A stretch of DNA of 18,834 nt from Gemmatimonadota bacterium (GTDB lineage Bacteria; Gemmatimonadota; Gemmatimonadetes; Longimicrobiales; RSA9): positions 36,331-55,164 of the forward strand of contig JBBDRO010000017.1 in the NCBI GenBank assembly GCA_040905425.1, read 5' to 3'. Position 1 is the first letter of the stretch; every line of letters begins with the position of its first letter. Under the pieces are notes generated by a model, which was not told where the DNA came from, ran no database searches, and saw nothing but the letters and a program-made list of their open reading frames with translations. Of this stretch, positions 180 through 15,439 are shown piece by piece. The position numbers were made by a program, and so were the translations under genes.

Positions 180-461
180 TGGGACCTCCCGGGAGGGTAG
201 GAGTGCCGAGCGAAGGACTTCCATGGGTGTGACGCATGCCGGCGGTGACGTGTTGGAAGCGCCCCCACGAAAGTCGTGGACTGTAGGGGAATCTACCACC
301 CGGCCGCGCGATCCGCTCACCACAGATTTTCCGCCATCCCCCGACAGATCGCAGCGGCTCGCGCGCCTACCTTCTGGACCAGTAATCGGCGGCGGCCTCT
401 CCCAGCGCGGAGACCGACCGACCCGAAAGGCCGACCCCGACGCAACGGCCTGTGCACGGCG

Positions 462-487
462 CCCGCCGGCACGCTCGGGCTGGCGGG
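462..487 (+). other. GC-rich hairpin in the korA leader / divergent intergenic region
   Basis: CCCGCCGGC (462-470), 8-nt loop, GCTGGCGGG (479-487): 9-bp stem with one G-U pair, ~70 nt upstream of the korA start; no U-tract; function unknown. Confidence 0.3.
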
Positions 488-559
488 AGTCGATCTGGGA
501 GAGCCGCTGCATCACGAGCCACCCCGATAACTACCGAGTCCAGGACTGAAAGGCGGATC

Positions 560-2473
560 ATGGCCACCACAGAGGCCGGTCTCCGGGAGAGCCCGGGCAC
601 AGCCATGGCGCCAGCGGCGCCCACTCCGGTCCGTGTGGACCTCCACACGGTGGAAGTGGTCTCCGACGCCGGCGAAGGTGCGCAGAAATGCGGGCAGATC
701 TTCGGCTCCGTGTCCGCCAAGATGGGCAACGGGGTGTGGACGGTGGAGATCATCCCCGCCGAGATCCAACCCCCGCCGCGCAACGCCGAGGGCGCCAGCG
801 GCAACCGCATCCGCATCGGCTCGCGGGAGGTCACCAACTGGGGTGACGAGACGGACCTCATGGTGGCGTTCAACGAACAGGTTCTGCTGGGCCGCCATCA
901 CCTGGGTGCCATCGGCCAGGACGCCATCATCCTGCTGGAGGACATGTGGGCCACCCACGCCGACGCGGACATCCGCACGGCGTGGGCCGAGGCCATGGCG
1001 GAGCTCTCCGAGGCCAGCTACCGCATCGTGCTGGTGCCCATGGAGGAGCAGTGCCTCACCGTGGTGGACAACGCCCGCAAGGGCAAGAACATGTTTGCCC
1101 TGGGCATGCTGGCGTGGATCTACGACCGGGACGTGGAGCGCATCAAGGAAGAGATTGCCTTCCAGTTCCGCAAGAAGAGCCAGGAGATCTACGACCGCAA
1201 CGTGGAGCTCCTGGAGCTGGGCTACGGGTGGGCCGCCGAGCACCTGGACTTCCGCTTCGAGGTACCCGCAACCACGGATCAGACCGCCAAGGTGGTCATG
1301 AACGGCAACCAGGCCGCGGCGCTGGGCGCGGTGGCGGCCGGGATGGAGCTGGCGGCCATGTACCCCATCACCCCCGCCACCTCCGTTTCCCACCACCTGG
1401 GTGAGGTGTTCGAGACGTATGGCGGCATCGTGCATCAGGCGGAGGATGAGATCGCTGCCGTGGGCGTGGCCATCGGCGCCTCGTGGGCCGGCAAGGTGGC
1501 GTTCACCATCACCTCGGGGCCGGGCCTGGCGCTGAAGACGGAATTCCTGGGGCTGGCCGCCATGACCGAGACGCCGCTGGTGCTGCTGGACGTGCAGCGC
1601 GGCGGCCCCAGCACCGGGCTGCCCACCAAGGTGGAGCAGTCGGACCTGCTGGCGGCCATCTACGGCCAGCCGGGGGACGCGCCCCACGTGGTCATGGCGG
1701 CGGCCACCATCGAGGAGTGCTTCCACGCCATGATCACCGCCCGGCGCATCGCGGAGACCTTCCGCATGGTGGTCATGGTGCTCACGGACGCCAATCTGGC
1801 CACCGGCGTGCAGCCCTTCGCGCGGCCCGATCCGAGCACGGCATGGCAGGGCGCGCCCATCGATCTGTCCGCCCCACCCGAGGGGCTCCGGCCGTACGAC
1901 TGGGACACCCGGACCGGGCTCTCCCGCCGCTTCGTGCCGGGGATGGTGGGCGGCGCCCACACCGCCACCGGGCTGGCGCACGACGAGCGCAGCAAGGTGG
2001 CCTACGACGCCGCCACCGTGCAGCGCAGCCACGCCATGCGCAGCCGCAAGCTGGCGGTCTTCCAGCAGACGCTCCGCCCACCGGAGCTCTACGGCCCGGC
2101 GGAGGGTGACCTCCTGGTGGTGGGCTGGGGCAGCACCAAGGGCGCCATCGAGGAGGCGGTGGATCGGGGGCGCGCCGCGGGACTCGAAGTCTCCTCACTG
2201 CACCTGACCTTCCTGTCCCCGCTGCAGCCGGGCCTGAAGGAGATCTTCCAGCGCTTCGGCAGGGTCATGACGGTGGAGATCAACTACAGCGACGAGCCGG
2301 ACGACCCCTTCATCACGCCCGAGAACCGCCGCTACGGGCAGCTGGCGCTGCTGCTGCGGGCACAGACGCTCGTGGACGTGGATTGCTGGACGCGGGTGCT
2401 GGGCGAGCCGCTCCGACCGGGCGCCATCCTGCGCGCCATGCAAGCAAAGCTGACCAGGGGAGGTGCCGCGTGA
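560..2473 (+). CDS. korA: 2-oxoacid:ferredoxin oxidoreductase alpha subunit (gamma-alpha fusion, KorA/OorA type), 637 aa
   Basis: N-terminal gamma domain (SDAGEGAQKCG, KNMFALG); motifs GNQAAALG, YPITPA, QAEDEIAA, TSGPG, QRGGPSTGLPT, GWGST. Start placed at ATG 560 after GAAAGG, not at the track's 452. Substrate specificity not determinable. Confidence 0.92.
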   Translation: MATTEAGLRESPGTAMAPAAPTPVRVDLHTVEVVSDAGEGAQKCGQIFGSVSAKMGNGVWTVEIIPAEIQPPPRNAEGASGNRIRIGSREVTNWGDETDLMVAFNEQVLLGRHHLGAIGQDAIILLEDMWATHADADIRTAWAEAMAELSEASYRIVLVPMEEQCLTVVDNARKGKNMFALGMLAWIYDRDVERIKEEIAFQFRKKSQEIYDRNVELLELGYGWAAEHLDFRFEVPATTDQTAKVVMNGNQAAALGAVAAGMELAAMYPITPATSVSHHLGEVFETYGGIVHQAEDEIAAVGVAIGASWAGKVAFTITSGPGLALKTEFLGLAAMTETPLVLLDVQRGGPSTGLPTKVEQSDLLAAIYGQPGDAPHVVMAAATIEECFHAMITARRIAETFRMVVMVLTDANLATGVQPFARPDPSTAWQGAPIDLSAPPEGLRPYDWDTRTGLSRRFVPGMVGGAHTATGLAHDERSKVAYDAATVQRSHAMRSRKLAVFQQTLRPPELYGPAEGDLLVVGWGSTKGAIEEAVDRGRAAGLEVSSLHLTFLSPLQPGLKEIFQRFGRVMTVEINYSDEPDDPFITPENRRYGQLALLLRAQTLVDVDCWTRVLGEPLRPGAILRAMQAKLTRGGAA

Positions 2474-3414
2474 GCTGCTCACTGCTGGGCTGCGCCGTGG
2501 ATGACGACCGCGTCTTCGAGATGGACGACTACGAGGGCGCCATGGCCCGCTGGTGCCCGGGTTGCGGGGACCACTCCGTGCTCACGGCGGTGGAGAAGCT
2601 GCTCACCGCCGAACAGCTGCGGCCGGAGAACACGGTCTTCGTGTCGGGGATCGGCTGCTCGAGCCGCTTCCCGCACTATCTGAAGACCTTCGGTTTCCAC
2701 GGCCTGCACGGGCGCGCGCTGCCGGTGGCCACGGGCGTGAAGCTGAACCGGCCCGAACTGGACGTCTTCGTGGTCATGGGAGACGGGGACTGCACCTCCA
2801 TCGGCGCGGGCCACTGGCTGCACGCGGTGCGCTACAACATGAACCTCACCGCGCTGATGCTGGACAACAACATCTACGGGCTGACGAAGATGCAGACGTC
2901 ACCCACCACGCCGCAGGGCTTCAAGAGCAACACGCAGCCCACGGGCAGCTACCTGCCGGCGCTGAATCCCATCGAGGCCACGCTGGGCATCACCAACGCC
3001 TCCTTCGTGGCGCAGACGGCGGAGTGGATCCCCGCCCATCTCTACGCCACCATCGAGGCCGCCTATCGCCACAAGGGCTTTGCCTTCGTGCGCATCCTCC
3101 AGCGCTGCCCGGTCTTCACGCCGCTCATCTACGCCGAGGCGGTGCGGCGGCCGGACGTGGTGGAGTTGATGGTCCATGAGGACGGCGTGCAGGTCCCCTC
3201 GCTCGAGGCCACGTACAAGAACCGGATCGCGCATGACCCCCTCGACCTGGACGGGGCGCGGCGGCTGGCCGAGACGTCGGACCGCATCCGCCTGGGCGTG
3301 TTCTTCCGGGACGAGTCCCGGCCCCGCTACGAGGAACTGCGGCGCGTGGCCAGCAGGAGTGCGGAGGAAAAGGTGACGCTGCTCAACCAGGAGCTGGATC
3401 GCTATGCCGTCTGA
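2470..3414 (+). CDS. korB: 2-oxoacid:ferredoxin oxidoreductase beta (TPP-binding) subunit, 314 aa
   Basis: WCPGCGD, SGIGCSSR, HGR, GDGD...DNNIYG TPP/Mg motif, ILQRCP. GTG start overlaps the korA stop (GTGA 2470-2473), with a GGAGGT RBS upstream. Confidence 0.92.
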   Translation: MSCSLLGCAVDDDRVFEMDDYEGAMARWCPGCGDHSVLTAVEKLLTAEQLRPENTVFVSGIGCSSRFPHYLKTFGFHGLHGRALPVATGVKLNRPELDVFVVMGDGDCTSIGAGHWLHAVRYNMNLTALMLDNNIYGLTKMQTSPTTPQGFKSNTQPTGSYLPALNPIEATLGITNASFVAQTAEWIPAHLYATIEAAYRHKGFAFVRILQRCPVFTPLIYAEAVRRPDVVELMVHEDGVQVPSLEATYKNRIAHDPLDLDGARRLAETSDRIRLGVFFRDESRPRYEELRRVASRSAEEKVTLLNQELDRYAV

Positions 3415-4393
3415 GGATCGGACCACCCGGGCCCTGGCGGCGCTGGCCGCCCCGAGGGAGAGCTTTCACGCGGCGGTGGCCGCGGCCGTGGACCAGGTAC
3501 GCGCCCTGGTGGATGCGAACCGCGCGCCCGCGGCCGGTCCCGCCGCCCGTGCCGCGGACGGCCTGGGTGCCTTCGCGGCGGGCCGCATCGACGCCGAGCG
3601 CTTTGCCGGCCTCTTTGCCGGTGAGCGCGTGCTGGATGATCGCGCGCTGGACGGGATGGAGGCCGCGCTCGCGGTGCTCACCGAAACGGCGGCGGCCGCC
3701 GATGACGCCTATCGGGTGGACGTGCCCTCAGGCGGGTCGCTGGGGGTGGAGGTGGACCGGGTGCTGGCCCACCTGGGGCGCGCCTTTGCGGCGGCCCGGG
3801 CCGTGGAGAGGGCGCGCACGGGCGGAGCGGCCGGGGAGGATCCGGCGGCACCCTGGCCCTTTGCCCGCTGGAACCGGGCAGAGCGGGCCATCGCGCCGCC
3901 GCTCGTGGTGGAGGTGGACGGCGCCGACCTGGCCGCCGGCGGCCTGGCCGCCTTCCTGGACGGTGGGCAGAAGCTGGTCCTGGTGGTGCGCGGCCCGGCG
4001 GCGCCCGCCCCGCTCGTGGGCATGATCACGCCGGGCACGCTCGTACTGCAGGCCACCAGCCCGGCGGCGCTCGGCCAGCTGGACGGCTGGGACGGCCCGG
4101 CCGTGGCGGCGCTGCTGCCCGCGGGCGCGGCCGAGTTCGCGCACCGGCCGCTGGCGGGCCAGACGCTGCGGGAGCGGCTGGCGGTCACGGCACTGCCCGA
4201 CGCGGCGCCGGTGCGCTGGCTGGGCGGGCGCTCGCCCTGGCAGCAGGGTCAGGAGTTGGCGCAGCTGCGCTCGCTCGCGGCGGAAGGGGTAGCCCCGCAG
4301 CAAGCGCCCGCCGAGCCCGATCAGGATGTGCAGCCCACCGATCGGCTGGCCGCCTGGCTCCTGCGGCAGACCCATCTCCCCGACGTGGCGTAG
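3404..4393 (+). CDS. Hypothetical 329-aa protein; degenerate, Cys-free paralog of the C-terminal TPP-binding half of the adjacent PFOR
   Basis: Overlaps korB by 11 nt and ends 12 nt before rnfB; AGGAG upstream. Collinear by-eye similarity to the PFOR, e.g. AFAAARAVERARTGG vs AFVAVRRAELILDGG, ERAIAPPLVVEVDG vs EFQLCPPIMAIGGDG, QLRSLA vs QLRELA. Confidence 0.8.
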   Translation: MPSEDRTTRALAALAAPRESFHAAVAAAVDQVRALVDANRAPAAGPAARAADGLGAFAAGRIDAERFAGLFAGERVLDDRALDGMEAALAVLTETAAAADDAYRVDVPSGGSLGVEVDRVLAHLGRAFAAARAVERARTGGAAGEDPAAPWPFARWNRAERAIAPPLVVEVDGADLAAGGLAAFLDGGQKLVLVVRGPAAPAPLVGMITPGTLVLQATSPAALGQLDGWDGPAVAALLPAGAAEFAHRPLAGQTLRERLAVTALPDAAPVRWLGGRSPWQQGQELAQLRSLAAEGVAPQQAPAEPDQDVQPTDRLAAWLLRQTHLPDVA

Positions 4394-4405
4394 GACGGGG
4401 GCGCC

Positions 4406-5260
4406 GTGCAACCGCTGCTGATCCTAAGTTCCGCCGCCATCCTGGGCGGTGTGGGGCTCACCTTTGGTGTGCTCATCGCCGCGGCCAACCGCAAGCTGCG
4501 CGTATGGGAGGATCCCCGCATCGACGCCGTCAATGACATGCTCCCCGGCGCCAACTGTGGCGCCTGCGGCTTTGCCGGCTGCCGGGCCTTCGCGGAGGCC
4601 ACGATCACCGGCCAGGTGGCGCCCGCCGTGTGCACCGTCATGGGTCCGGATGAGCGCCAGGACGTGGCCGCCTTCCTGGGCGTGGACGCGGGGCAGGCCA
4701 ACAAGCGAGTGGCGCGGCTGCTGTGCGCCGGCGGCAGTGACGTGGCGGTCCAGAAGGCCACCTACCGCGGGCTGGCCAGCTGCGCCGCCGCCGTGGCGGT
4801 GAGCGGGGGTGGGAAGGGATGCGCGTGGGGTTGCGTGGGCCTGGCCGACTGCGCCGTGGTCTGTGACTTCGACGCCATCACCATGAACGAGCACGACCTA
4901 CCGGTCGTGGATCCCGAGAAGTGCACGGCGTGCAACGACTGCGTGGAGGCCTGCCCGCTGGGCCTCTTCACGCTCATGCCCATGGATCAACACCTCCTCG
5001 TGCAGTGCCGCAACCTGCTGCACGGTGAGGACGCCACGGACGTCTGTGCCGTGGCCTGCAATGCCTGCGGACGCTGTGTACAGGACGCGGCGCCCGGCCT
5101 CATCGAGATGCGGACCAACCTGGCCGTGATCGACTACTCGAAGATCGAACTGGAGAACGCCGCCGCCATCGCGCGCTGCCCCACCGGTGCCATCACCTGG
5201 CTCGACGGGATGCAGTTCGCGGAGGAACCGGCCGCCCCAGCCGGGAGTGAAGCGCGATGA
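4406..5260 (+). CDS. rnfB: Rnf/Rsx electron transport complex subunit B (membrane-anchored polyferredoxin), 284 aa
   Basis: N-terminal TM helix; EDPRI...LPGANCGACGFAGC FeS domain; CAWGCVGLADCAVVCDFDAI, KCTACNDCVEACP, CNACGRC...CPTGAI; GTG start. Confidence 0.93.
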   Translation: MQPLLILSSAAILGGVGLTFGVLIAAANRKLRVWEDPRIDAVNDMLPGANCGACGFAGCRAFAEATITGQVAPAVCTVMGPDERQDVAAFLGVDAGQANKRVARLLCAGGSDVAVQKATYRGLASCAAAVAVSGGGKGCAWGCVGLADCAVVCDFDAITMNEHDLPVVDPEKCTACNDCVEACPLGLFTLMPMDQHLLVQCRNLLHGEDATDVCAVACNACGRCVQDAAPGLIEMRTNLAVIDYSKIELENAAAIARCPTGAITWLDGMQFAEEPAAPAGSEAR

Positions 5261-8200
5261 TCATGAAGCGGAAGTCCAACGCCCCCGAGTCCGGCCCTCG
5301 GTACCCCGGGGTCCCCGAAGCCACCGATGGCAGCGGCGCCGTAGTATACGTGGAGACGGCCGCCAGCGAGGCGGCGGGCGCGTATCCCATCACGCCGTCC
5401 ACCCAGATGGGTGAGGGGTGGGCGCTGGCCGTGGCGGCCGGCCACGAGAACGTGCACGGCCGGCGCCTGCTCTTCTTCGAGCCGGAGGGTGAGCACGCCG
5501 CGGCCGCGGTCACGGCGGGCATGAGCATGACCGGGCTCCGGGCCACGAACTTCTCCAGTGGCCAGGGCATAGCCTACATGCACGAGTCGCTCTACGCGGC
5601 GGTGGGCAAGCGCCTGACCTACGTGCTGAACGTGGCGGCGCGCGCCATGACCAAGCACGCGCTGAACGTGCACGCCGGCCACGATGACTACCACGCCGTG
5701 GATGACACCGGCTTCCTGCAGTTCTTTGCCAAGGACGTCCAGGAGACCGCCGATCTGACGCTCATCGCGCACCGCGCGGCGGAGCTCTCGCTGACGCCGG
5801 CGCTGGTGGCGCAGGACGGCTTCCTCACCAGCCACGTCATCGAGTCCATCAAGCTGCCGGAGCGGGAGCTCATCGCCGAGTACCTGGGTGATCCCGCGGA
5901 CATGATCGAGTGCCCCACGCCGGCGCAGCGGCTGACCTTCGGGCCCACGCGGCGGCGCATTCCCGAGATGTTCGACGTGGACTACCCGACCATGCTGGGG
6001 CCCGTGCAGAACCAGGACGCCTACGCCCAGGGCGTGGCCGCCCAGCGCCCCTTCTACTTCGATCACGCCCGCGCGTTGATCGACCGGTCCTTCGAGGAGT
6101 ACGCCGCGCTCACGGGCCGCCGCTACGAGCGGGTCATGGGCTACCGGCTGGAGGATGCTGAGTACGTCATCGCGGGGCAGGGCTCCGTGGTGCCGAACGC
6201 CGAGGCCGTGGTGGATTTCATGCGCGCGCAGGGCGTCAAGGTGGGCGTGCTGAACCTGACGCTCTTCCGGCCTTTCCCGGCCGACCTGGTCACGCAGCTG
6301 CTGCGCGGCAAGCAGGCCGTGGCCGTGCTGGAGCGCGTGGACCAGCCGCTGGCCGTGGACCCGCCGCTGCTGCGGGAGATCCGGGCCGCCTTCGGCCAGG
6401 CGCAGGAGAATGGCCGGGCCGAGGCCGTCAACGTCCGCAAGGGCCGCGGGGTGCCGGCCCTGGCCAAGCCGCACGCCGACCTGGCCTCGGTGCGCGCGGA
6501 CGAGCTGCCGGACTTCTACTCGGGCGGCTTCGGCTTTGGCAGCCGCGATCTGCAGCCGGGCGATATCGTGGCCGCGGTGCGGAACATGATGCCGGAGGGT
6601 GCGGGGCGTCGTCGCTTCTACCTGGGGCTGGACTTCATCCGCAAGGATACGAAGCTGCCCAAGCTGCAGGTCTGGCAGGAGGAGCTGCTGGAGAACTACC
6701 CGCACCTGGCCCACCTCTCCCTGGAGGCGGTGGAGGGCGTGGATCTGAGCGGCGAGGGATCGGTGGCGCTGCGCATCCACTCGGTGGGCGGGTGGGGCGC
6801 CATCACCACCGGCAAGAACGTGGCGCTCACCGCCTTCGAACTGGCGGGGCTGCACATCAAGGCCAATCCCAAGTACGGGTCCGAGAAAAAGGGGCAGCCC
6901 ACCACCTTCTACGCCACGCTCTCCCGCGAGCCGATCCGGGTGAACGCGGAGCTGAAGAACGTCAACGTGGTGCTCTCGCCCGATCCCAACGTCTTCCGCC
7001 ACTCCAACCCGCTCGCGGGGCTGGGGCAGGACGGCGTGTTCGTCATCCAGAGTGATCTCGAGCCGGCGGCCCTCTGGGCCGTGCTCTCGGAGGACGCCCG
7101 CCGCACGGTGCGGGAGAAGAACATCCAGGTCTACGTGCTGGACGGCTTCAGCATTGCCAACGAGGAGGCCAGCGATCCGGAGCTCCGCTACCGGATGCAG
7201 GGCGCTGCCTTCATGGGGGCCTTCTTCCGCACCGGACCCCTGGCCCGCAACGAGAACCTCTCCGAGGAGCGCATCTTCGAGGGCATCGAGACGCAGCTAC
7301 GCGCCAAGTTCGGCAAGCTGGGCGAGCGGGTCATCCAGGACAACGTGCGCGTCATCCGGCGGGGCTGGGACGAGGTCCTTCAGGTGGACACCAGCGTGGA
7401 GGTGGCGGTGGAGGCGGAGGTCCACGACACCATGCGGCCGATCCCCGCGCTGCTGAACCATCCCGACGCCGAGCAGGGGCTGGGCAATCCGGGCAGGTTC
7501 TTCGAGCAGGTGTGCGCCGTCTGCGCCGTGGGCCAGGACGTCATCGCGGATCCGTTCACCGCCGTGAGCGCCATGCCCGCCGCCAGCAGCAGCGTGCGGG
7601 ACATGACGGACATCCGCTTCGAGGTGCCCGACTTCATTGCGGAGAAGTGCACGGGCTGCAGCCAGTGCTGGGTGCAGTGCCCCGACGCGGCCATCCCGGG
7701 ACTGGTCACGCCCGTGGAGGACCTCATCGACCGGGCCATCGACCACGCCGCCAACGGCCGCGCACTGGAGCGAGTACGGCAGATCTCCAAGCACCTTGCC
7801 AAGGAGTCAAGGAAGGTGATGGAGGCGGTGCCGTTCCACGACTTCGGCCAGGTGGTCTCCGCCGCCTACCACAACGTGGCGGACAAGCTGGGCTGGGAGC
7901 CGGAGCGGCGCGCCGAGCTGGACGAACAGTTCGCGGCCGTGCACTCCGTGCTTGCCGAGTTCCCGCTGGCCCGGACCGCGCCCTTCTATGACGTGCACGA
8001 GGGCAAGGCCAAGGGGACCGGAGGCCTCCTCTCCATCACCATCAATCCCGAGGCGTGCAAGGGCTGCAACATCTGCGTGGAGGTGTGCCCCGAGAACGCC
8101 CTGATCACCATCAAGCAGGACGAGGAGGTGGTGGAGCGGCTGCGCCGCAACTGGAACTTCTGGGAGGCGCTGCCCGACACGTCGGACCGCTACGTCAACG

Positions 8201-10362
8201 TGAGCAACGTGGACGAGGGCATCGGCGTGCTGAGTTCGCTGCTGCTGAAGAAGAAGACGTACCGCTCCATGGTGGGCGGAGACGGCGCCTGCATGGGCTG
8301 CGGTGAGAAGACCACGGTCCACCTGGTGACGAGCACCATCGAGGCGCTCATGCAGCCCCGCGTGAAGCGCTTCGTGGCCCGCCTGGAGGAGCTCATCGGC
8401 CGGCTGGACGAGCAGGCGCGGGACCTCCTCTCCGCGGATGCGGACCTGGATCTGGCGGCGCTCGCGGAGGGCGCGCATGTGGACGTGCCGCTGGACGACG
8501 GGAAGCGGGAGACGCTGCAGCGCATCGTCGCCACGCTGAAGGCGCTGCGGGATCTCAAGTGGCGCTATGAGGACGGCCCGAGCGGCGAGGGGCGCGCCAG
8601 CATGGGCATCACGAACAGCACCGGGTGCTCGTCGGTGTGGGCCAGCACCTACCCCTACAACCCGTATCCGTATCCCTGGGCCAACCACCTCTTCCAGGAC
8701 GCGCCCTCGCTGGCCATCGGCGTCTTCGAGGGGCACATGCGGAAGATGGCGGACGCCTTCGTGGCGGTGCGCCGGGCGGAGCTCATCCTGGACGGCGGCT
8801 ACGACGCCGTGCGCGACGAGCCGTTCTTCACCGCCTTCGACTACCGGGAGTTCACCGACGAGGAGTTCCAGCTGTGCCCGCCCATCATGGCCATCGGCGG
8901 GGACGGGGCCATGCTGGACATCGGCTTCCAGAACCTCTCGCGGCTGCTGGCCTCCGGCAAGCCGATCCGCGTCATGGTGCTGGACACGCAGGTCTACTCG
9001 AACACGGGCGGCCAGGCGTGCACCAGCGGCTTCACCGGCCAGGTGGCCGACATGTCCGCCTACGGCAAGGCGCAGCATGGCAAGACGGAGACGCGCAAGG
9101 AACTGGCGCTGCTCGCGCTGGCGCACCGCGGCGCCTTCGTGCACCAGTCATCCCAGGCCAACGCCAGCCACCTCATCGCGGGCGTCATCAAGGGCCTGAA
9201 CTCGCGGCGCCCGGCCGTCTTCAACATCTACACGCCGTGCCCGGTGGAGCACGGGCTGCCCGACGAGTGGGCGCCCTACGGCGCCAAGCTGGCGCTGGAA
9301 TCGCGCGCCTTCCCGTTCATGACCTATGACCCGGACGGCGGCGCCTCCATCGCGGAGTGCATCTCCCTGGAGGGCAACCCGGCCATCGACGACCCGTGGC
9401 CCACCTACGAGCTCACCTTCGTGAATGACGAGGGGGAGGAGGAGACGCTGGAGCTGCCGCTATCCACCGCCGACTGGGCGGCCACGGAGGGCCGCTTCAA
9501 GAAGCACTTCAAGGAGCTGAAGCGGGAGGCGTGGACCGAGGACATGGTGCCCTTCCACGAGTTCGTCTTCATGGGTGCGGCGGAGCGTGAGGGCAAGGAG
9601 CCCTTCATCCACGCCCTGGGCAAGGACCGCCAGCTGGTGCGCAAGTCCGTGTCCATGGAGATGGTCACGCTGGCGGAGGACCGGCTGCTCTTCTGGGGCC
9701 AGCTCCGGGAGCTGGCCGGCCTGGCCGCGCCCGAGGTGGTACGGGACGCCGTGCGTGATCAGCTGGAGGCCGAGTTCGATGCCCGCGCGGAGGCGCTCAG
9801 GACCGAGTACGAGGGCCGCATGGCGGAGCTGAAGGCCGCCTACCCGCCGCTCATCGCGCGGCGCATGGCGGAGGGCCTCCTCAAGGCCGGCGCCGGCGAC
9901 CGCACGGTGGCCGAGCTGCTGGAGGTGGCGGACCGGACCCCGGGCCTGCAGCCCATCCGTCTCTCGGACATCTCCTCCGCGCTGGCCGCCGAGCCGGCGC
10001 CCTCCGGCAACGGCGGCGGCGTGGCCGTGGCGGAGGCGCCGGCGGCGGTGGAGGCCGGTGCGGCGCCCGCCCCCGCGCCGGCCGCGGTGGAGGAGGATGA
10101 GGACGGCGGCCTGGCCATGGAGCCGTACATCGACACGGCCCGCTGCACCACGTGCAACGAGTGCACGAACCTGAACGGCAAGATGTTCGCCTACAATGAG
10201 GACAAGCAGGCCTACATCAAGGACCCGAAGGCCGGCACCTTCGCGCAGCTCGTGCAGGCCGCGGAGCGCTGCCCGGCGGCACTCATCCACCCCGGCACGC
10301 CGCTCAATCCCAAGGAGAAGGACCTGGAGAAGTGGCTCAAGCGGGCGGAGCCGTTCAGCTGA
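5257..10362 (+). CDS. por: Single-chain pyruvate:ferredoxin/flavodoxin oxidoreductase (Por/NifJ-like), unusually large (1701 aa), with C-terminal tethered ferredoxin
   Basis: AYPITPST, EGEHAA, VGGWGAITTGKN, YGSEKKGQPT, two CxxCxxCxxxCP motifs (7648-7683, 8056-8091), ACMGCGEK, STGCSSVW, GGDGAMLDIGFQN, DTQVYSNTGGQ, YTPC. ATGA overlap with the rnfB stop. Pyruvate specificity is inferred from the family. Confidence 0.9.
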   Translation: MIMKRKSNAPESGPRYPGVPEATDGSGAVVYVETAASEAAGAYPITPSTQMGEGWALAVAAGHENVHGRRLLFFEPEGEHAAAAVTAGMSMTGLRATNFSSGQGIAYMHESLYAAVGKRLTYVLNVAARAMTKHALNVHAGHDDYHAVDDTGFLQFFAKDVQETADLTLIAHRAAELSLTPALVAQDGFLTSHVIESIKLPERELIAEYLGDPADMIECPTPAQRLTFGPTRRRIPEMFDVDYPTMLGPVQNQDAYAQGVAAQRPFYFDHARALIDRSFEEYAALTGRRYERVMGYRLEDAEYVIAGQGSVVPNAEAVVDFMRAQGVKVGVLNLTLFRPFPADLVTQLLRGKQAVAVLERVDQPLAVDPPLLREIRAAFGQAQENGRAEAVNVRKGRGVPALAKPHADLASVRADELPDFYSGGFGFGSRDLQPGDIVAAVRNMMPEGAGRRRFYLGLDFIRKDTKLPKLQVWQEELLENYPHLAHLSLEAVEGVDLSGEGSVALRIHSVGGWGAITTGKNVALTAFELAGLHIKANPKYGSEKKGQPTTFYATLSREPIRVNAELKNVNVVLSPDPNVFRHSNPLAGLGQDGVFVIQSDLEPAALWAVLSEDARRTVREKNIQVYVLDGFSIANEEASDPELRYRMQGAAFMGAFFRTGPLARNENLSEERIFEGIETQLRAKFGKLGERVIQDNVRVIRRGWDEVLQVDTSVEVAVEAEVHDTMRPIPALLNHPDAEQGLGNPGRFFEQVCAVCAVGQDVIADPFTAVSAMPAASSSVRDMTDIRFEVPDFIAEKCTGCSQCWVQCPDAAIPGLVTPVEDLIDRAIDHAANGRALERVRQISKHLAKESRKVMEAVPFHDFGQVVSAAYHNVADKLGWEPERRAELDEQFAAVHSVLAEFPLARTAPFYDVHEGKAKGTGGLLSITINPEACKGCNICVEVCPENALITIKQDEEVVERLRRNWNFWEALPDTSDRYVNVSNVDEGIGVLSSLLLKKKTYRSMVGGDGACMGCGEKTTVHLVTSTIEALMQPRVKRFVARLEELIGRLDEQARDLLSADADLDLAALAEGAHVDVPLDDGKRETLQRIVATLKALRDLKWRYEDGPSGEGRASMGITNSTGCSSVWASTYPYNPYPYPWANHLFQDAPSLAIGVFEGHMRKMADAFVAVRRAELILDGGYDAVRDEPFFTAFDYREFTDEEFQLCPPIMAIGGDGAMLDIGFQNLSRLLASGKPIRVMVLDTQVYSNTGGQACTSGFTGQVADMSAYGKAQHGKTETRKELALLALAHRGAFVHQSSQANASHLIAGVIKGLNSRRPAVFNIYTPCPVEHGLPDEWAPYGAKLALESRAFPFMTYDPDGGASIAECISLEGNPAIDDPWPTYELTFVNDEGEEETLELPLSTADWAATEGRFKKHFKELKREAWTEDMVPFHEFVFMGAAEREGKEPFIHALGKDRQLVRKSVSMEMVTLAEDRLLFWGQLRELAGLAAPEVVRDAVRDQLEAEFDARAEALRTEYEGRMAELKAAYPPLIARRMAEGLLKAGAGDRTVAELLEVADRTPGLQPIRLSDISSALAAEPAPSGNGGGVAVAEAPAAVEAGAAPAPAPAAVEEDEDGGLAMEPYIDTARCTTCNECTNLNGKMFAYNEDKQAYIKDPKAGTFAQLVQAAERCPAALIHPGTPLNPKEKDLEKWLKRAEPFS

Positions 10363-11735
10363 TGTTCAAGCCGCCTTCGCTGGTCCAGCTTCCCGGGGTG
10401 CGCGGCATGGCGGCCCGGCCCGGTTTCCGGCACGGCGTGCATCCGCCGGACGCCAAGGAACTGTCCAGGGCCAGGACCATCCGGCGCATGCCTTTCCCGG
10501 CGGAGGTGGTGCTCCCGCTGCGGCAGCACACGGGCAAGCCGGCCCGGCCGCTGGTGAAGCCCGGCGACCGGGTGGAACGCGGGGACAAGATCGCGGCCGC
10601 CGACGGCTTCGTGTCCGTGCCCATCCACGCCTCGGCGGCGGGGGTGGTGAAGTCCATCGGCTGGTGGCCGCACGCCGACGGCACCATGGCCGAGGCCATC
10701 CGCATCCAGGTGGCGCGCTTCAGCGCCCAGCTGCCGCGGCCGCGCATGGTGCCGCACTGGGAGGGGCTCACCCCCGCCCAGGTGGTGGCGGCCGTACAGG
10801 AGGCGGGCGTGGTGGGGCTGGGCGGCGCCGCCTTCCCCGCGCACGTGAAGCTGCAGCCGCCGCCGGACTGCCCGATCGAATTCCTGCTCGTCAACGGCGC
10901 CGAGTGCGAGCCCTACCTGACCAGCGACCACCGGGTCATGGTGGAGTACGCGGAGCGCGTCTGGTTCGGCGTGCGCATCATGATGCACGCGCTGGGCGTG
11001 CCCCGGTGCGTGGTGGGCGTGGAGAAGAACAAGCCGGACGCCATCGAGGCGCTCCGGGCCGCCGCGCCCACTGGTCTGGACGTGCGCGTGGAGGCGCTCA
11101 CGGTGAAGTATCCGCAGGGCGCCGAGAAGATGCTCATCCACGCTGTCACGGGGCGCGAGGTGCCCTCGGGCAAGCTGCCCATGCACGTGGGCACCGTGGT
11201 GCAGAATGTGGGCTCGATTGCCGCCATTGCCGAGGTCTTCGAGACGGGCATGCCGCTCGTGGAGCGCATCGTCTCGGTCACCGGCCCCGCCATCAAGGAC
11301 CCGCAGAACCTCATCGTGCCCGTGGGCACCAAGCTGCGCGACGTGCTGGACTACTGCGGCGGGCTCACGGAGGACGTGGCGGAGATCGTCTTCGGCGGCC
11401 CCATGATGGGCATTGCCCAGCCGGATCTGGACGCGCCACTCATCAAGGGCACGAGCGGCGTGGTGGCCCTCACGAAGGCGCAGGCGCGGCCGCGCACGGT
11501 GCACCCCTGCATCCAGTGCGCGCGCTGCCTGGACGCCTGCCCGGTCTTCCTGAACCCATCCAAGCTGGGGCGGCTGGCGCAGGCCGGCCGCTACGAGGAG
11601 ATGGCCAAGCACCACCTGGCCGACTGCATGCTGTGCGGCTCGTGCTCCTACGTGTGCCCGTCCAGCATTCCGCTGTCCCAGATGTTCGCCCTGGCCAAGG
11701 CGGCCGAGCGCCGCAGGAAAGAGCAGGCCGCGTGA
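10362..11735 (+). CDS. rnfC: Rnf/Rsx complex subunit C (NAD/FMN-binding, 2x[4Fe-4S]), 457 aa
   Basis: GVHPP, PLRQHTG, PIHAS, AGVVGLGGAAFP, NGAECEPYLTSD, KYPQGAEK, GGPMMG, CIQCARCLDACP, CMLCGSCSYVCPS. TGATG overlap with the por stop. Confidence 0.95.
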   Translation: MFKPPSLVQLPGVRGMAARPGFRHGVHPPDAKELSRARTIRRMPFPAEVVLPLRQHTGKPARPLVKPGDRVERGDKIAAADGFVSVPIHASAAGVVKSIGWWPHADGTMAEAIRIQVARFSAQLPRPRMVPHWEGLTPAQVVAAVQEAGVVGLGGAAFPAHVKLQPPPDCPIEFLLVNGAECEPYLTSDHRVMVEYAERVWFGVRIMMHALGVPRCVVGVEKNKPDAIEALRAAAPTGLDVRVEALTVKYPQGAEKMLIHAVTGREVPSGKLPMHVGTVVQNVGSIAAIAEVFETGMPLVERIVSVTGPAIKDPQNLIVPVGTKLRDVLDYCGGLTEDVAEIVFGGPMMGIAQPDLDAPLIKGTSGVVALTKAQARPRTVHPCIQCARCLDACPVFLNPSKLGRLAQAGRYEEMAKHHLADCMLCGSCSYVCPSSIPLSQMFALAKAAERRRKEQAA

Positions 11736-12823
11736 GCACGGTGGACCGGGCCACTGCAGCCGCGCGCCTGCGGGGCATCCCCGGGCCCGGCGCGGGGCGG
11801 GGCGCCAGCGAGCGCACGCCCGACTGGGGCCGTGTGGCGCTGCAGCTCACCGCCTCCCCGCACATCAAGGCGCCCGACAGCACCGAGCGCATCATGTGGA
11901 CGGTGGTGGCCAGCCTGCTGCCCGTGGTGCTGGCGGCTGGCTGGTACTTCGGCGTGAGCGCCTGGCTGGTGATCGGCACCGCCACCGTGGGCGCGGTGGG
12001 CACCGAGCGGCTGCTCAGCGGCGGCGCAGCCGTACGGGACGGCTCGGCGGCCATCACCGGCATCCTCCTGGGGCTCACGCTGCCGGCGGGCATGCCGCTG
12101 TGGATGGCGCTGCTCGGCGGCGTGTTCGGCATTGCTTTCGGCAAGCTGCTCTTTGGCGGGCTCGGGCAGAACGTGTTCAACCCCGCGCTCGTGGGGCGGG
12201 CTTTCCTGCAGGCGGCCTTCCCGGTGGCCATCACCACCTGGCCGGCGCCCCGCCAGGGCTTCCTGGCGCAGGTGGGGGACACCTTCGCGCTGCCGCTCAT
12301 GAGCCCGGCCGTGGACGTCACCACCACCGCCACGCCGCTGGCGGAGATGAAGTTCGAGGGCACTACCACGGCGCTGAATGACCTGGTGCTGGGCAGTACA
12401 GCCGGTTCGCTGGGCGAGACGGCGGGCATCCTCATCCTGCTGGGCGGCGCCTACCTGGCGCTCCGCAACTATCTGGACTGGCGCATTCCGGTGGGCATCC
12501 TGGGGACGGTGGCGCTGCTCTCGGCGGCGCTCAACCTGGTGGACCCCGCGTTCCCCGATCCGCTCTTCATGATCTTTTCCGGCGGGTTGCTGCTGGGCGC
12601 GGTCTACATGGCCACGGACATGGTCACCTCTCCGGTCACCCGCGCCGGCGCCTGGATCTTCGCGGCGGGGATCGGCTTCCTGGTGGTGCTCATCCGCGTG
12701 TGGGGCGGGCTGCCGGAGGGGGTCATGTACGCCATCCTGCTCATGAACGCCATGGTGCCCTTCATCGACCGGGCCACCCAGCCCCGGGTGTTCGGCACCG
12801 TCCGCGGCAGGGAGGGCGCGTGA
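11732..12823 (+). CDS. rnfD: Rnf/Rsx complex subunit D, 363 aa
   Basis: SPHI, DGSAAITG, KLLFGGLGQNVFNPALVGRAFL, FMN-attachment site DVTTTATPL, GSLGET, ATDMVTSP, PEGVMYAILLMN. GTGA overlap with rnfC. Only the last 363 aa of the track's 875-aa ORF. Confidence 0.95.
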   Translation: MSTVDRATAAARLRGIPGPGAGRGASERTPDWGRVALQLTASPHIKAPDSTERIMWTVVASLLPVVLAAGWYFGVSAWLVIGTATVGAVGTERLLSGGAAVRDGSAAITGILLGLTLPAGMPLWMALLGGVFGIAFGKLLFGGLGQNVFNPALVGRAFLQAAFPVAITTWPAPRQGFLAQVGDTFALPLMSPAVDVTTTATPLAEMKFEGTTTALNDLVLGSTAGSLGETAGILILLGGAYLALRNYLDWRIPVGILGTVALLSAALNLVDPAFPDPLFMIFSGGLLLGAVYMATDMVTSPVTRAGAWIFAAGIGFLVVLIRVWGGLPEGVMYAILLMNAMVPFIDRATQPRVFGTVRGREGA

Positions 12824-13503
12824 GCACGCAGCCCGTACCCGGCAACGGCCCTGGGGTGGCGGAGGTGCAGTCCTGGCGGCTGGTCACCACGCTGGCGGTG
12901 GCGGGGATGCTCGCGGGGCTGCTCATCGTGCTGGTCTTCCAGTGGGCGCACCCGCGCATCCTGGATCACCAGGAGCGTGCCGTCACGGCCGCCGTGGACG
13001 TGGTCCTCTCCGCGCCGGAGCGGACGGAGCGCTACTTCGTGGTCGACGGTGAGCTCCGCGCCGAGGCCCCCGAGGGCAGTGACACCCTCAGACTGGAGCG
13101 GGTCTTCCTGGGCTTCGACGCGTCCGATGCACCGATAGGCTACGCGGTGCGCGGCGGGGAGGCGGGCTTCCAGGACATCATCACCGTGCTCTTCGGCTAC
13201 CACCCCGCGCGCGACGAGGTGCTGGGCATGCTGGTGCTGGACAACAAGGAGACCCCCGGCCTGGGAGACAAGATCGTCAAGGACACGGCGTTCGTGGCGG
13301 CGTTCCAGGGTGTGCGCGCGCCGATCCAGGGCGTCAAGGCGCGGGCGGGCAGCGGCGCGGAAACCGAGGTGGACATGATCACCGGCGCCACCATCTCCTC
13401 GCGCGCCGTCATCGACATCATCAACCACCGCATCGAGGCGCTCGGGCCCATTCTGAAGCGTCATCTGGAAACGCGGGTAGCCGGCAGTGGAGCGTCCACA
13501 TGA
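12820..13503 (+). CDS. rnfG: Rnf/Rsx complex subunit G, 227 aa
   Basis: N-terminal TM helix, GFQDII, ETPGLGDKI, covalent-FMN motif DMITGATISSRAV. GTGA overlap with rnfD after GGAGG. Confidence 0.93.
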   Translation: MSTQPVPGNGPGVAEVQSWRLVTTLAVAGMLAGLLIVLVFQWAHPRILDHQERAVTAAVDVVLSAPERTERYFVVDGELRAEAPEGSDTLRLERVFLGFDASDAPIGYAVRGGEAGFQDIITVLFGYHPARDEVLGMLVLDNKETPGLGDKIVKDTAFVAAFQGVRAPIQGVKARAGSGAETEVDMITGATISSRAVIDIINHRIEALGPILKRHLETRVAGSGAST

Positions 13504-14192
13504 GGGCCACGACCCCGACGGAGGACCTGCTCCGCGGCATCTGGCGGGAGAACCCCGTGCTGATCCAGCTCCTGGGGCTGTGCCCCGCGCTGGCGGTCAC
13601 CAACACCGTGGCCAACGGCATTGCCATGGGGCTGGCCACCACTTTCGTGCTGCTGGGCTCCAGCCTCCTGGTCTCCCTGCTGTCCGACTACATCCCCAAG
13701 GAAGTGCGCATCAGCGCCTACATCCTGATCATCGCCACCTTCGTGACGCTGGTGGACCTGATCCTGGCGGCGGTGGTGCCTGACATCCACAAGGCGCTGG
13801 GCGCCTTCATTGCGCTCATCGTGGTGAACTGCATGATCCTGGGCCGCCAGGAGGCGTTCGCGTCCCGGCGCCCGGTGGGCCGGGCCCTGCTGGATGCCGC
13901 GGGCACGAGCGCGGGCTTCATGATCGCGCTGCTCCTGATGAGCGGCTTCCGCGAGCTGCTCGGCAACGGCTCGCTCCTGGGCGTGGACGTCATGGGCCCC
14001 GGCTTCGAGCCCTGGATCATCATGATCCTGCCCGCCGGCGGCTTCTTCATGCTGGGCTTCATCCTGCTGGCGCTGGCCTGGTGGCAGGGGCGCGCCCAGC
14101 CGCCGGTCAAGCCGCGGCGCTGGCCGAACGGCGTGACCACGACCACGCATGCCAACGCCGCCCCGCGCGAGCGTGACAAGGTGGTGGCCTGA
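13500..14192 (+). CDS. rnfE: Rnf/Rsx complex subunit E, 230 aa
   Basis: ENPVLIQLLGLCPALAVT, EVRI, LIVVNCMILGR, RELLGNG, ILPAGGF. ATGA overlap with rnfG. Confidence 0.95.
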   Translation: MRATTPTEDLLRGIWRENPVLIQLLGLCPALAVTNTVANGIAMGLATTFVLLGSSLLVSLLSDYIPKEVRISAYILIIATFVTLVDLILAAVVPDIHKALGAFIALIVVNCMILGRQEAFASRRPVGRALLDAAGTSAGFMIALLLMSGFRELLGNGSLLGVDVMGPGFEPWIIMILPAGGFFMLGFILLALAWWQGRAQPPVKPRRWPNGVTTTTHANAAPRERDKVVA

Positions 14193-14767
14193 TGAATGAG
14201 CTGATCTGGATCCTGATCAGCGCCATGGTGGTCAACAACTTCACCCTGGCCCTCTTCCTGGGACTGTGTCCCTTCCTGGGTGTGTCCGGGCGCGTGGCCA
14301 CGGCGCTCCGCATGGGCGCGGCCAACATCTTCGTCATGGTCATCACGTCGCTGGCCGCGTGGTTCCTGAACAGCTACGTGCTGGCCGACGCGCCCTACCT
14401 GCGCATCATCTCCTTCATCGTGGTGATCGCCTCGCTGGTGCAGATCGTGGAGATGGCCATCAAGAAGCTGAGCCCCGCGCTCTTCCGGGAGCTGGGCATC
14501 TTCCTGCCGCTCATCACCACCAACTGCGCCATCCTGGGCCTGGCCATCTTCCAGACCAATCGTGGCTACGGACTGGCGGAAGGGCTCTTCTTTGCCGTGG
14601 GCGCCGGCCTGGGTGTGACCCTGGCCCTGGTGCTCATGGCTTCCATCCGCGAGCGCATCGAGCTCTCGGACGTTCCGGCGCTGGCCCGCAACATGGGGCT
14701 GGTGCTCATTCTGGCCGGCACGCTGTCGCTGGCCTTCACCGGCTTCGCGGGATTGTTCAGCTCATGA
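14192..14767 (+). CDS. rnfA: Rnf/Rsx complex subunit A, 191 aa
   Basis: VNNFTLALFLGLCPFLGVS, LGIFLPLITTNCAILG, IRER, LSLAFTGFAG. TGATG overlap with rnfE. Confidence 0.95.
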   Translation: MNELIWILISAMVVNNFTLALFLGLCPFLGVSGRVATALRMGAANIFVMVITSLAAWFLNSYVLADAPYLRIISFIVVIASLVQIVEMAIKKLSPALFRELGIFLPLITTNCAILGLAIFQTNRGYGLAEGLFFAVGAGLGVTLALVLMASIRERIELSDVPALARNMGLVLILAGTLSLAFTGFAGLFSS

Positions 14768-14913
14768 TCGAACCCCTGATCGGCATAGGCATCTTCGCCG
14801 CGCTCTTCGCGGCGTTCGGCGCTCTCAAGCCCCGGAGCTGCGGCAGCGGGAGCTGCGGCGCCTGCTCCGGCGGCCCGTGCTCGTACGAGAAGTCCGGGGA
14901 GGGGAATCCGTGA
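14764..14913 (+). CDS. 49-aa single-TM Cys-rich small protein (NqrM-like or FeoB-associated Cys-rich peptide-like architecture)
   Basis: ATG overlaps the rnfA stop (ATGA 14764-14767). MIEPLIGIGIFAALFAAFGALKPRSCGSGSCGACSGGPCSYEKSGEGNP: hydrophobic helix followed by Cx4Cx2Cx4C. Confidence 0.72.
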   Translation: MIEPLIGIGIFAALFAAFGALKPRSCGSGSCGACSGGPCSYEKSGEGNP

Positions 14914-15409: not shown

Positions 15410-15439
15410 TGGACACCAACGGGCCTTGCCGGGTACTAT
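15410..15439 (+). promoter_or_regulatory. Putative sigma70-type promoter for dsbD
   Basis: TGGACA (15410-15415), 18-nt spacer, TACTAT (15434-15439): 5/6 match to both consensus hexamers, intergenic, in very GC-rich DNA. Confidence 0.5.

Follow-up and report, generated by a model that had tools for sequence, protein, structure and literature searches.

A conserved operon of Gemmatimonadota that interleaves genes for two 2-oxoacid:ferredoxin oxidoreductases with those for the Rnf complex

Organization of the operon

We analyzed an 18.8-kb stretch of DNA (contig JBBDRO010000017.1, ~70% G+C; hereafter the window) from a soil bacterium of the phylum Gemmatimonadota. Eleven genes run in one direction along its plus strand at positions 560-14913, in the order korA, korB, orf329, rnfB, por, rnfC, rnfD, rnfG, rnfE, rnfA and pep49. 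They encode two 2-oxoacid:ferredoxin oxidoreductases (OFORs), namely the two-subunit KorAB and the single-chain Por, which is of the pyruvate:ferredoxin oxidoreductase (PFOR) type, together with all six subunits of the ion-translocating Rnf complex and two small proteins without a known family. The explanation of the locus as a whole that we consider best, and somewhat more probable than its negation, is that this operon, conserved in Gemmatimonadota, serves to hard-wire the two ferredoxin-dependent enzymes to Rnf.

Re-derivation of the open reading frames (ORFs) showed that all eleven read through in frame to one stop codon, at the end. Their G+C content was 0.87–0.96 at third codon positions (GC3) and 0.42–0.64 at second positions (GC2), which matches the expectation for coding DNA at 70% G+C. 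Eight of the ten junctions are overlaps of either 4 nucleotides (nt; GTGA or ATGA) or 1 nt (TGATG), the korB/orf329 overlap is 11 nt long, and orf329 and rnfB are separated by a gap of 12 nt. The original prediction for this DNA had claimed a run of eleven genes with precisely these types of junction, and the re-derived ORFs reproduced it exactly; the gene names that it proposed agreed with the Pfam and NCBIfam assignments, with orf329 and pep49 matching no family. It had further claimed that no stand-alone ferredoxin gene is present, and this holds for these 18.8 kb: ferredoxin-type Cys motifs were confined to Por, RnfB, RnfC and one antisense artefact, and no flavodoxin or ferredoxin family was found among the other window ORFs scanned.

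Por and its tethered ferredoxin

The por gene (5257-10362) encodes a protein of 1701 amino acids (aa) with the Pfam domains POR_N, PFOR_II, POR, Fer4 and TPP_enzyme_C, which is ~500 aa longer than the solved PFORs. Pieces of Por could be aligned to the PFOR of Moorella thermoacetica (6cin_A), in which residues 21-383 corresponded to domain I/II, residues 484-822 to domain III and the first ferredoxin motif, residues 920-1026 to the second ferredoxin motif and the start of domain VI, and residues 1116-1170 and 1208-1360 to the thiamine pyrophosphate (TPP) region. The stretches left unmatched were ~384-483, 823-919, 1027-1115 and a C-terminal extension of 340 residues (1361-1701). Multiple alignment of 27 homologues showed that two CxxCxxCxxxCP motifs (C798/801/804/808 and C934/937/940/944), the four Cys of the proximal cluster (C1012/1015/1124/1328) and G1215-D1216-G1217 are invariant in all of them. 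In Por, the TPP/Mg motif and the ligands for three [4Fe-4S] clusters accompany domains I, II, III, V and VI; every expected ligand is invariant, and the enzyme is probably active. An identical protein from a Gemmatimonadota metagenome-assembled genome is named in the database only '2-oxoacid:acceptor oxidoreductase family protein'.

The C-terminal extension was modelled from 53 sequences (mean predicted local distance difference test score, pLDDT, 84; predicted template modelling score, pTM, 0.49). The model consisted of a beta-rich domain, followed by long helices, a segment of 40 residues of low confidence and a confident end domain (pLDDT 90–97). The low-confidence segment (pLDDT <50 at fragment residues 222-261, i.e., Por residues ~1578-1617, encoded at 9988-10107) is Ala/Pro/Gly-rich with an acidic end, and no other part of the protein varies as much, in both sequence and length, among the 27 homologues. 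Besides the end domain the extension contains ~220 structured residues, and Foldseek found no structural match for its beta-rich domain and helical parts. Between the beta-rich domain and the linker, at Por residues ~1493-1544 (fragment residues 137-188), a single helix of ~52 residues was predicted.

The end domain (residues 1620-1701, encoded at 10114-10359; Pfam Fer4_13) is a single-cluster ferredoxin. Its four Cys residues (CxxCxxC...CP) were invariant in 27 of 27 and in 53 of 53 sequences, including that of locus L015, which is discussed below. Desulfovibrio africanus ferredoxin I was the nearest relative of this domain by sequence (1dax, phmmer E 2.1e-5) as well as by fold (1fxr_A, Foldseek target TM score 0.84, root-mean-square deviation 0.9 Å over 58 columns), and the next structural matches were other single-cluster ferredoxins. 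D. africanus ferredoxin I is the natural partner of the PFOR of the same organism. The tethered ferredoxin proposed for Por was therefore borne out as a single-cluster domain behind a disordered linker of ~40 residues, which, in the model, is the anatomy of a swinging arm or mobile carrier.

KorAB and Orf329

KorA (637 aa; 560-2473; Pfam POR and POR_N) is a fused gamma-alpha OFOR subunit that scored 528.4 bits with the NCBIfam model TIGR03710 (cut-off 482.75). Its nearest solved relative was the alpha subunit of the 2-oxoglutarate:ferredoxin oxidoreductase of Magnetococcus marinus (6n2n_A, E 5.8e-76). KorB (314 aa; 2470-3414), whose gene overlaps korA by GTGA, is the TPP- and [4Fe-4S]-binding beta subunit; TPP_enzyme_C (95 bits) and PFO_beta_C were above the Pfam cut-offs, and the score with TIGR02177 was 240 bits, below the cut-off of 261.9. 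Cys 29, 32, 63 and 213 and the G104-D105-G106 motif of KorB were invariant in 37 of 37 sequences. KorAB thus has two subunits and a single cluster, and a 2-oxoglutarate enzyme is its nearest relative. At the very N-terminus of KorB (window positions 2470-2490) we also observed an x-C-S-L-L motif, whose Cys3 was invariant (37/37) and whose Leu5 and Leu6 were nearly so; Cys3 is not among the four cluster ligands.

Orf329 (3404-4393) is an accessory protein that contains no Cys residue in the window and belongs to no Pfam or NCBIfam family. A search of 1.84 billion entries for its own family gave 617 cluster representatives (E<=1e-3). Among the 150 of these that were listed, relatives were 320–457 aa long and no fused form was seen; every named homologue among 120 listed was called 'hypothetical protein', and none of them had a Pfam domain. 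Orf329 also evolves faster than its neighbours, with a mean column identity of 42% against 72–76% for Por, KorA and KorB.

In an AlphaFold2 model of Orf329 built from 49 sequences (pLDDT 89.8, pTM 0.83), the N-terminal part was helical and an alpha/beta domain formed the C-terminus. All of its nine top Foldseek matches were OFORs, including the PFORs of Moorella and Desulfovibrio and the beta subunit of oxalate oxidoreductase, although these matches were weak (E 0.013–0.05, probability 0.54–0.89, TM score 0.24–0.30). Profile comparison by hhalign placed Orf329 residues 118-271 on residues 1158-1378 of Por, that is, on its TPP module, over 154 columns (probability 48%, E 1.8e-4). The register of the Orf329/Por alignment agrees with the motifs: PPLVVEVDGADL stands opposite PPIMAIGGDGAML, ITPGxxVxQ opposite HRGAFVHQ and HxPxxG opposite YDPDGG. 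GDG is replaced by VDG, the Mg/TPP loop and the strand that follows it are deleted in Orf329, and neither the GDG...N Mg/TPP motif nor the Cys ligands of the proximal cluster are found. Comparisons of Orf329 with the KorB sequence or profile and with the KorA profile were not significant (hhalign probability 0.6% for KorB and 0.4% for KorA), its N-terminal 120 residues did not match the Por profile, its profile found no PDB sequence at E<=10, and a search of the ESM Atlas gave no usable match. These comparisons argue, at a moderate level, that Orf329 is probably related to the OFOR TPP module but has degenerated and binds no cofactor, which makes the earlier suggestion of a pseudo-subunit plausible; if the relationship holds, Orf329 is a pseudo-enzyme.

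Orf329 travels with korAB: it is present in a variant that has no rnfB, and it is absent together with korAB in locus L047 (see below for both). Because of this co-occurrence, and of the overlap between the end of korB and the start of orf329 that 67 of 68 loci share, the partner of Orf329 is more likely the OFOR pair than Rnf. As a hypothesis, Orf329 is most likely a structural adaptor for the OFOR pair.

Rnf subunits

All six Rnf subunits are encoded and match the expected Pfam families. RnfC (10362-11735), the NAD(H)-binding subunit with flavin mononucleotide (FMN) and two [4Fe-4S] clusters (Pfam RnfC_N, Complex1_51K, SLBB and Fer4), scored 521 bits with TIGR01945 (cut-off 246). Among the membrane subunits, RnfD (11732-12823, PF03116) scored 310 bits with TIGR01946 (cut-off 207), RnfE (13500-14192, PF02508) scored 218.7 bits with TIGR01948 (cut-off 213.4), and RnfA (14192-14767; PF02508, 180 bits) scored 220.1 bits with TIGR01943, just under the cut-off of 229.3. 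The FMN-binding subunit RnfG (12820-13503, Pfam FMN_bind), with 93.7 bits, was likewise just under the cut-off of TIGR01947 (102); its translation shows a flavinylation-type motif, D-x-x-T-G-A-T, and the window has no apbE.

RnfB (284 aa; 4406-5260; Pfam FeS and Fer4) is the membrane-anchored polyferredoxin that serves as the input subunit, and its gene lies apart from the other rnf genes. It scored 74.4 bits with TIGR01944 (cut-off 68.7), aligned end to end with RnfB of Clostridium tetanomorphum (7zc6_B, E 4.5e-50) and matched RnfB of Acetobacterium woodii (9eri_B, E 2e-57) over 221 residues. A membrane helix and a [4Fe-4S] domain make up its N-terminal part, and ferredoxin-like domains its C-terminal part. 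Compared with 7zc6_B, four Cys residues in the region ~218-258 have given way to other residues, namely the fourth in the penultimate motif and the first three in the last one. In the standard ligation of 2x[4Fe-4S] ferredoxin folds, those four Cys are the ligands of one cluster. All 20 Cys residues of RnfB were invariant in 71 of 71 homologues, and there was no further Cys column. With the four ligands of one site replaced, the last domain of RnfB therefore has one cluster fewer than that of 7zc6_B, and the loss extends to all 71 homologues. According to the available text of a 2025 Rnf review, the C-terminal region of RnfB is the ferredoxin acceptor site and has between two and seven clusters depending on the organism, and the docking of ferredoxin on RnfB is poorly resolved in current Rnf structures.

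Conservation of the gene order

To follow the operon across genomes, a profile of the window Por and 26 homologues was used to scan one genome per species. At least 507 stretches encode a relative of Por; all synteny counts given here refer to the best 80 of these, which are the closest relatives rather than a random sample. Identity to the window Por was 62–73% in these 80 loci, with the exception of L008 (80% over a short match of 339 residues). Gene order was read by local tblastn of the window proteins. Most loci (67 of 80) were labelled Gemmatimonadota, Longimicrobiales among them, and one more (L046) came from a Gemmatimonadota candidate genus of the order Palauibacterales. The other labels were Chloroflexota groups (4 loci), Acidobacteriota groups (2), Rokubacteria (1), Deltaproteobacteria (1) and unclassified (4); binning errors are possible for those on short contigs.

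The ten larger genes occurred in the same order in 33 of the 35 loci that were long enough to hold them, so the order korAB-orf329-rnfB-por-rnfCDGEA, for which a synteny search had been proposed, is conserved. Neighbouring genes were adjacent on the same strand almost without exception, and many junctions kept overlaps of 4 nt or 1 nt, counted with a start-picking heuristic that favours the start nearest to the upstream stop. For korA-korB, adjacency was found in 63/63 loci and such overlaps in 59/63; korB-orf329 was adjacent in 68/68 and never showed a 4-nt or 1-nt overlap (0/68), having instead an identical 11-nt overlap in 67/68. The genes orf329 and rnfB were adjacent in 68 of 74 loci (overlaps 13/68; within −12 to +15 nt 57/68), and rnfB and por in 75 of 80 (overlaps 61/75). 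At por-rnfC, adjacency was seen in 52/53, overlaps in 3/53 and distances within −12 to +15 nt in 15/53. Within the rnf cluster, adjacency and overlaps were 46/47 and 33/47 for rnfC-rnfD, 43/44 and 40/43 for rnfD-rnfG, 41/42 and 39/42 for rnfG-rnfE, and 40/41 and 40/40 for rnfE-rnfA.

This arrangement exceeds chance, and the start/stop overlaps are kept in relatives at most junctions. As overlaps between por and rnfC are rare, the unit is better viewed as two tightly coupled blocks, korAB-orf329-rnfB-por and rnfCDGEA with its tail, with a looser link between them. The rnfB gene is consistently displaced into the OFOR block, between orf329 and por, and does not lie with rnfCDGEA. The rnf tail was incomplete in L024 and L029. 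The locus labelled Deltaproteobacteria (L047) has rnfB-por-rnfCDGEA; korAB and orf329 were not detected in the 1.2 kb upstream, and a pep49-type ORF was not found after its rnfA.

Genes downstream of rnfA and flanking regions

The last gene of the run, pep49 (14764-14913), encodes a peptide of 49 aa with one transmembrane helix and a Cys-rich tail, which is a candidate iron or FeS maturation factor for Rnf. Among the 40 loci with a complete rnfA, 34 had a pep49-type ORF (44–74 aa, one hydrophobic helix and at least four Cys) directly behind it, and two of the six loci missed by this filter had a tblastn match. At E<=1, PF12669 (FeoB_associated) matched 20 of the 34 peptides (best E 8.9e-6); the window peptide did not match it. 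We also considered pep49 as NqrM, and this identity was not supported by the family model (0 of 34 peptides at E<=1); the likeness lies in position and make-up only.

Further downstream, apbE follows the pep49-type ORF in 29 of 37 relatives (e.g., L044, 19766-20755). It is absent from the whole window and from the region downstream of rnfA in the other 8 of the 37 loci, one of which has apbE elsewhere in the locus. The window has a probable twelfth gene, cys128 (14997-15383, plus strand; GC3 0.96, GC2 0.47), 83 nt after pep49. It encodes a Cys-rich protein of 128 aa with two CxxC...CxxC-like pairs that belongs to no family and whose ESM Atlas neighbours are hypothetical proteins of Gemmatimonadota. 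In 23 of 37 loci, rnfA is followed within 2.5 kb by a homologue of cys128, and in L004 a homologue was seen upstream of korA on the opposite strand. In Vibrio cholerae, as described in the available text of the 2025 review, apbE and nqrM stand behind nqrABCDEF, are co-transcribed with it and serve flavinylation and the insertion of the intramembrane [2Fe-2S] cluster. By analogy of position and make-up, pep49 is a candidate NqrM analogue.

The region in front of korA (150-559, plus strand) is a leader of ~400 nt and the likely start of the operon. It has no codon periodicity, as phase-specific G+C gave no GC3 signal; an overlapping ORF in it has no Pfam family, and neither an Rfam match nor a sigma-70-like site was found there. 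An Rfam scan of the window gave no match at all. The promoter and terminator scan found nothing credible within the operon; terminator-like sites were no commoner than in shuffled sequences, and the sole sigma-70-like site of the window lies at 15410-15439. It precedes a gene (15506-17836, plus strand) for a DsbD-type thiol:disulfide interchange protein of 776 aa (DsbD_N, DsbD_TM and thioredoxin-like domains), which is probably a separate transcription unit. Two minus-strand ORFs at 17885-18373 and 18488-18832 have a coding GC3 signature (0.90–0.91) and no Pfam family.

Proposed electron path and alternative explanations

Functional coupling of the two OFORs to Rnf is likely. In the path that we propose, a 2-oxoacid would be oxidized at TPP, and the electrons would pass through the [4Fe-4S] chain of the enzyme to the swinging ferredoxin domain of Por, from this domain to the RnfB polyferredoxin, and then via RnfA/E, RnfG, RnfD and RnfC to NAD+, with export of ions. 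Maturation of the Rnf cofactors would fall to Pep49 and, in most relatives, to ApbE as well, and Orf329, as an adaptor, could serve KorAB, which has no ferredoxin domain of its own. A tethered carrier can serve only an acceptor within the reach of its linker, which speaks for at least a transient proximity of Por and Rnf. We infer the hand-over from the Por ferredoxin to RnfB, and the same applies to an independence from soluble ferredoxin and to any stable assembly of these proteins.

Several observations weigh against such hard-wiring. The por/rnfC junction is loose in relatives (3 overlaps in 53 loci) and is interrupted by an insertion of 7.6 kb in L074 (9405-17060), and insertions also occur at rnfC/rnfD in L004 (1.6 kb, 16664-18295) and at rnfG/rnfE in L055 (1.2 kb, 18291-19526). 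Five loci (L002, L008, L015, L036 and L075), four of which are labelled Chloroflexota, have korAB-orf329-por without rnfB between them. The only full-length Por among these five, that of L015 (1673 aa), keeps the tethered ferredoxin, which is therefore not specific to the Rnf-linked form, and no rnfC was found within ~460 nt downstream of this por. Por itself has a PFOR-like architecture and fails the curated PFOR equivalog TIGR02176, with 408.6 bits against a cut-off of 911.35; because its score is so far below this cut-off, the substrate is unproven. The match of Orf329 to the TPP module is moderate only, and its model had no Foldseek match at E<=0.001. Finally, the scan for ferredoxins covered the 18.8-kb window, and genes for soluble ferredoxins may lie outside it. 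The flanks of L015 and L075, both on short contigs, contained neither rnf genes nor informative families beside the rnfB-less module; upstream of korAB-orf329-por, L075 has genes for a short-chain dehydrogenase and an amine-oxidase-like flavoprotein.

The proposed path could equally reverse, with the membrane potential driving NADH-dependent reductive carboxylation. Rnf would then push electrons from NADH onto the tethered ferredoxin, and Por and KorAB would act as pyruvate and 2-oxoglutarate synthases in anaplerotic or acetate-assimilating CO2 fixation, a direction of flow that we find well conceivable while giving it less than an even chance. OFORs are reversible, and reverse operation is what Rnf is otherwise known for in aerobes, with Rnf1 serving nitrogenase in this manner in aerobic Azotobacter, whereas two-subunit KorAB-type enzymes run oxidatively in aerobes such as mycobacteria and haloarchaea. 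The host lineages here are mainly aerobic chemoorganotrophs. In favour of the reductive direction, Rnf papers, in their available parts, have Rnf operating in reverse to supply reduced ferredoxin, and the available text of a 2026 PFOR review says of PFORs that their presence in aerobes 'remains enigmatic'. No signs of autotrophy were found in the 18.8 kb, however, which contain neither citrate lyase nor fumarate reductase, and the Palauibacterales genome paper, in its available part, reports no carbon-fixation genes for that order of Gemmatimonadota, from which one of the 80 loci (L046) derives. The lifestyle of the host lineages and this report lead us to favour oxidation with energy conservation. 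It is also conceivable, if somewhat unlikely, that the locus encodes co-regulated enzymes that are independent both physically and kinetically, the electrons being carried by a soluble ferredoxin from elsewhere, and the C-terminal domain of Por being an extra internal cluster or an O2-protective or regulatory appendage. PFOR and Rnf work in this way in anaerobes, as the available parts of reviews describe; domain VII of D. africanus PFOR is, according to the PFOR review in its available part, an O2-protective C-terminal add-on; the Por extension holds its ~220 structured residues beyond the ferredoxin; and a soluble ferredoxin gene could lie in the genome beyond the window. Against this, a disordered linker of ~40 residues followed by an invariant, intact ferredoxin fold is the anatomy of a mobile carrier and not of a fixed internal cluster, and rnfB is regularly placed in the OFOR block.

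A stronger version of the coupling, put forward in the original prediction, is a stable supercomplex, in which KorAB, Orf329 and Por would be permanently docked on RnfB and RnfC at the membrane. Such an assembly would pump ions as a 2-oxoacid:NAD+ oxidoreductase and take the place of the dehydrogenase complexes for pyruvate and 2-oxoglutarate. All support for hard-wiring applies to it as well. The carrier tethered to Por cannot diffuse off, and the variable, disordered linker implies that Por must approach its acceptor; moreover, rnfB lies between OFOR genes and is coupled to por, a pseudo-subunit suggests a scaffold role, and, more speculatively, the docked ferredoxin domain might replace the lost cluster site of RnfB. 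We nevertheless regard such an assembly as unlikely, given that the link between por and rnfC is loose and interrupted in relatives, and that the rnfB-less variants retain Orf329 and the tethered ferredoxin. Translational overlap is, in addition, widespread in compact, high-G+C operons and alone is not indicative of a complex. In the most elaborate form of this idea, a ferredoxin-free, membrane-docked 2-oxoacid:NAD+ oxidoreductase, Orf329, as a defunct copy of the Por TPP module, would glue KorAB to Por, both enzymes would load the same swinging-arm ferredoxin, and the arm would plug into the cluster-reduced RnfB; this we consider slightly more doubtful still. If it were true, a major aerobic phylum of soils would couple the oxidation of pyruvate and 2-oxoglutarate, with NADH as a product, to the pumping of ions, conserving the ~150–200 mV that the dehydrogenase complexes waste, and, run backwards, the respiration-driven membrane potential would power reductive carboxylation.

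Novelty and significance

Literature already describing this system would have removed its novelty, and none was found: searches of full-text literature, subscription-only papers and supplements aside, yielded no account of an OFOR-Rnf operon, of a PFOR of ~1700 aa or of Rnf in Gemmatimonadota. PMC6704655, PMC5736913 and PMC10469786 are, in their available parts, irrelevant to or silent on an OFOR-Rnf operon. The November 2026 review of PFOR diversity, in its available text, describes domains I–VII only, mentions Rnf only as a ferredoxin consumer, and contains no occurrence of 'Gemmatimon' or 'extension'. What is new here is the interleaving of OFOR and Rnf genes in one operon, a Por of ~1700 aa with a swinging ferredoxin, the probable pseudo-subunit, the cluster-reduced RnfB and the breadth of the system across a soil phylum.

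Energy conservation in anaerobes depends centrally on Rnf and OFORs, which have so far been treated as separate enzymes joined by a diffusible ferredoxin pool. The operon is conserved among Gemmatimonadota, in several hundred species-level genomes or more, and its anatomy, with rnfB among the OFOR genes, a ferredoxin tethered to one OFOR and a probable pseudo-subunit, suggests a dedicated hand-over. If Por indeed hands electrons to RnfB as hard-wiring of the OFORs to Rnf implies, aerobes would be using low-potential 2-oxoacid chemistry with energy conservation, or Rnf-driven CO2 assimilation, and a part of the enigma of OFORs in aerobes, as posed in the available text of the 2026 PFOR review, would be explained. 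The operon would also offer a tractable structural system for the docking of ferredoxin on RnfB, and functions would be assigned to three families now called 'hypothetical', those of Orf329, pep49 and cys128.

Comparison with known systems

Each of the two oxidoreductases has known counterparts. KorAB resembles the KorAB-type OFORs of M. marinus (6n2n) and Sulfolobus tokodaii (5b46) in the gamma-alpha fusion of KorA, in a KorB with TPP and a single [4Fe-4S] cluster, and in the absence of the delta (ferredoxin) domain; it differs in that korB is followed by a coupled third protein, Orf329, in 68 of 68 loci, and in the score of KorB under the TIGR02177 cut-off. Por shares domains I, II, III, V and VI, the TPP motif and the Cys ligands of three clusters with single-chain PFORs of the NifJ type (M. 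thermoacetica, 6cin; D. africanus, 1b0p), whereas its additional ~500 residues, with the internal unmatched stretches and the 340-residue C-terminal extension, and its score far under the curated cut-off set it apart. The domain appended to it is nearest to D. africanus ferredoxin I.

The closest precedents for doing without a free carrier are other OFOR systems. PFOR-reductase fusions are represented by the pyruvate:NADP+ oxidoreductase of Euglena and Cryptosporidium, and OFORs with built-in NAD(P) reductase subunits by the phenylglyoxylate:NAD+ oxidoreductase PadEFGHI and the 2-oxoglutarate:NADP+ oxidoreductase of Azoarcus; Pad family names appeared among the weak NCBIfam matches of the window proteins. 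In these enzymes, the free carrier between the OFOR core and the pyridine-nucleotide reductase is removed. However, they are soluble and do not conserve energy, whereas in the window operon Rnf, a membrane ion pump, would act as the reductase, and a ferredoxin, not a flavoprotein, is fused. The Hdr-Vhu/Mvh-Fwd/Fmd super-assemblies of methanogens, as described in the available parts of their literature, likewise pass low-potential electrons through fixed or tethered polyferredoxin modules without a free ferredoxin pool. These are unrelated cytoplasmic enzymes that use flavin-based bifurcation, and their assembly was demonstrated by cryo-electron microscopy, whereas an assembly of the products of the window operon is putative.

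The tail of the operon recalls nqrABCDEF-apbE-nqrM of V. cholerae (2025 review, available text), as in window relatives a flavin transferase and a small Cys-rich membrane protein are encoded behind the genes of an Rnf-type pump; the differences are that the FeoB-associated family, and not NqrM (0 of 34), is the one to which pep49-type peptides (20 of 34) show matches, and that the window has no apbE. The overall chemistry is that of the PFOR, soluble ferredoxin and Rnf route of anaerobes such as C. tetanomorphum, A. woodii and Thermotoga maritima, in which, according to the available text of the reviews, electrons pass from a 2-oxoacid via ferredoxin and Rnf to NAD+ in an ion-coupled manner. 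The same six Rnf subunits are present, and the window RnfB aligns with those of C. tetanomorphum and A. woodii. In those anaerobes, however, the genes of the enzymes lie apart and a diffusible ferredoxin connects their products, whereas in the window operon rnfB lies within the OFOR block, a ferredoxin is tethered to Por, RnfB is short of one cluster site, and most of the host phylum is aerobic.

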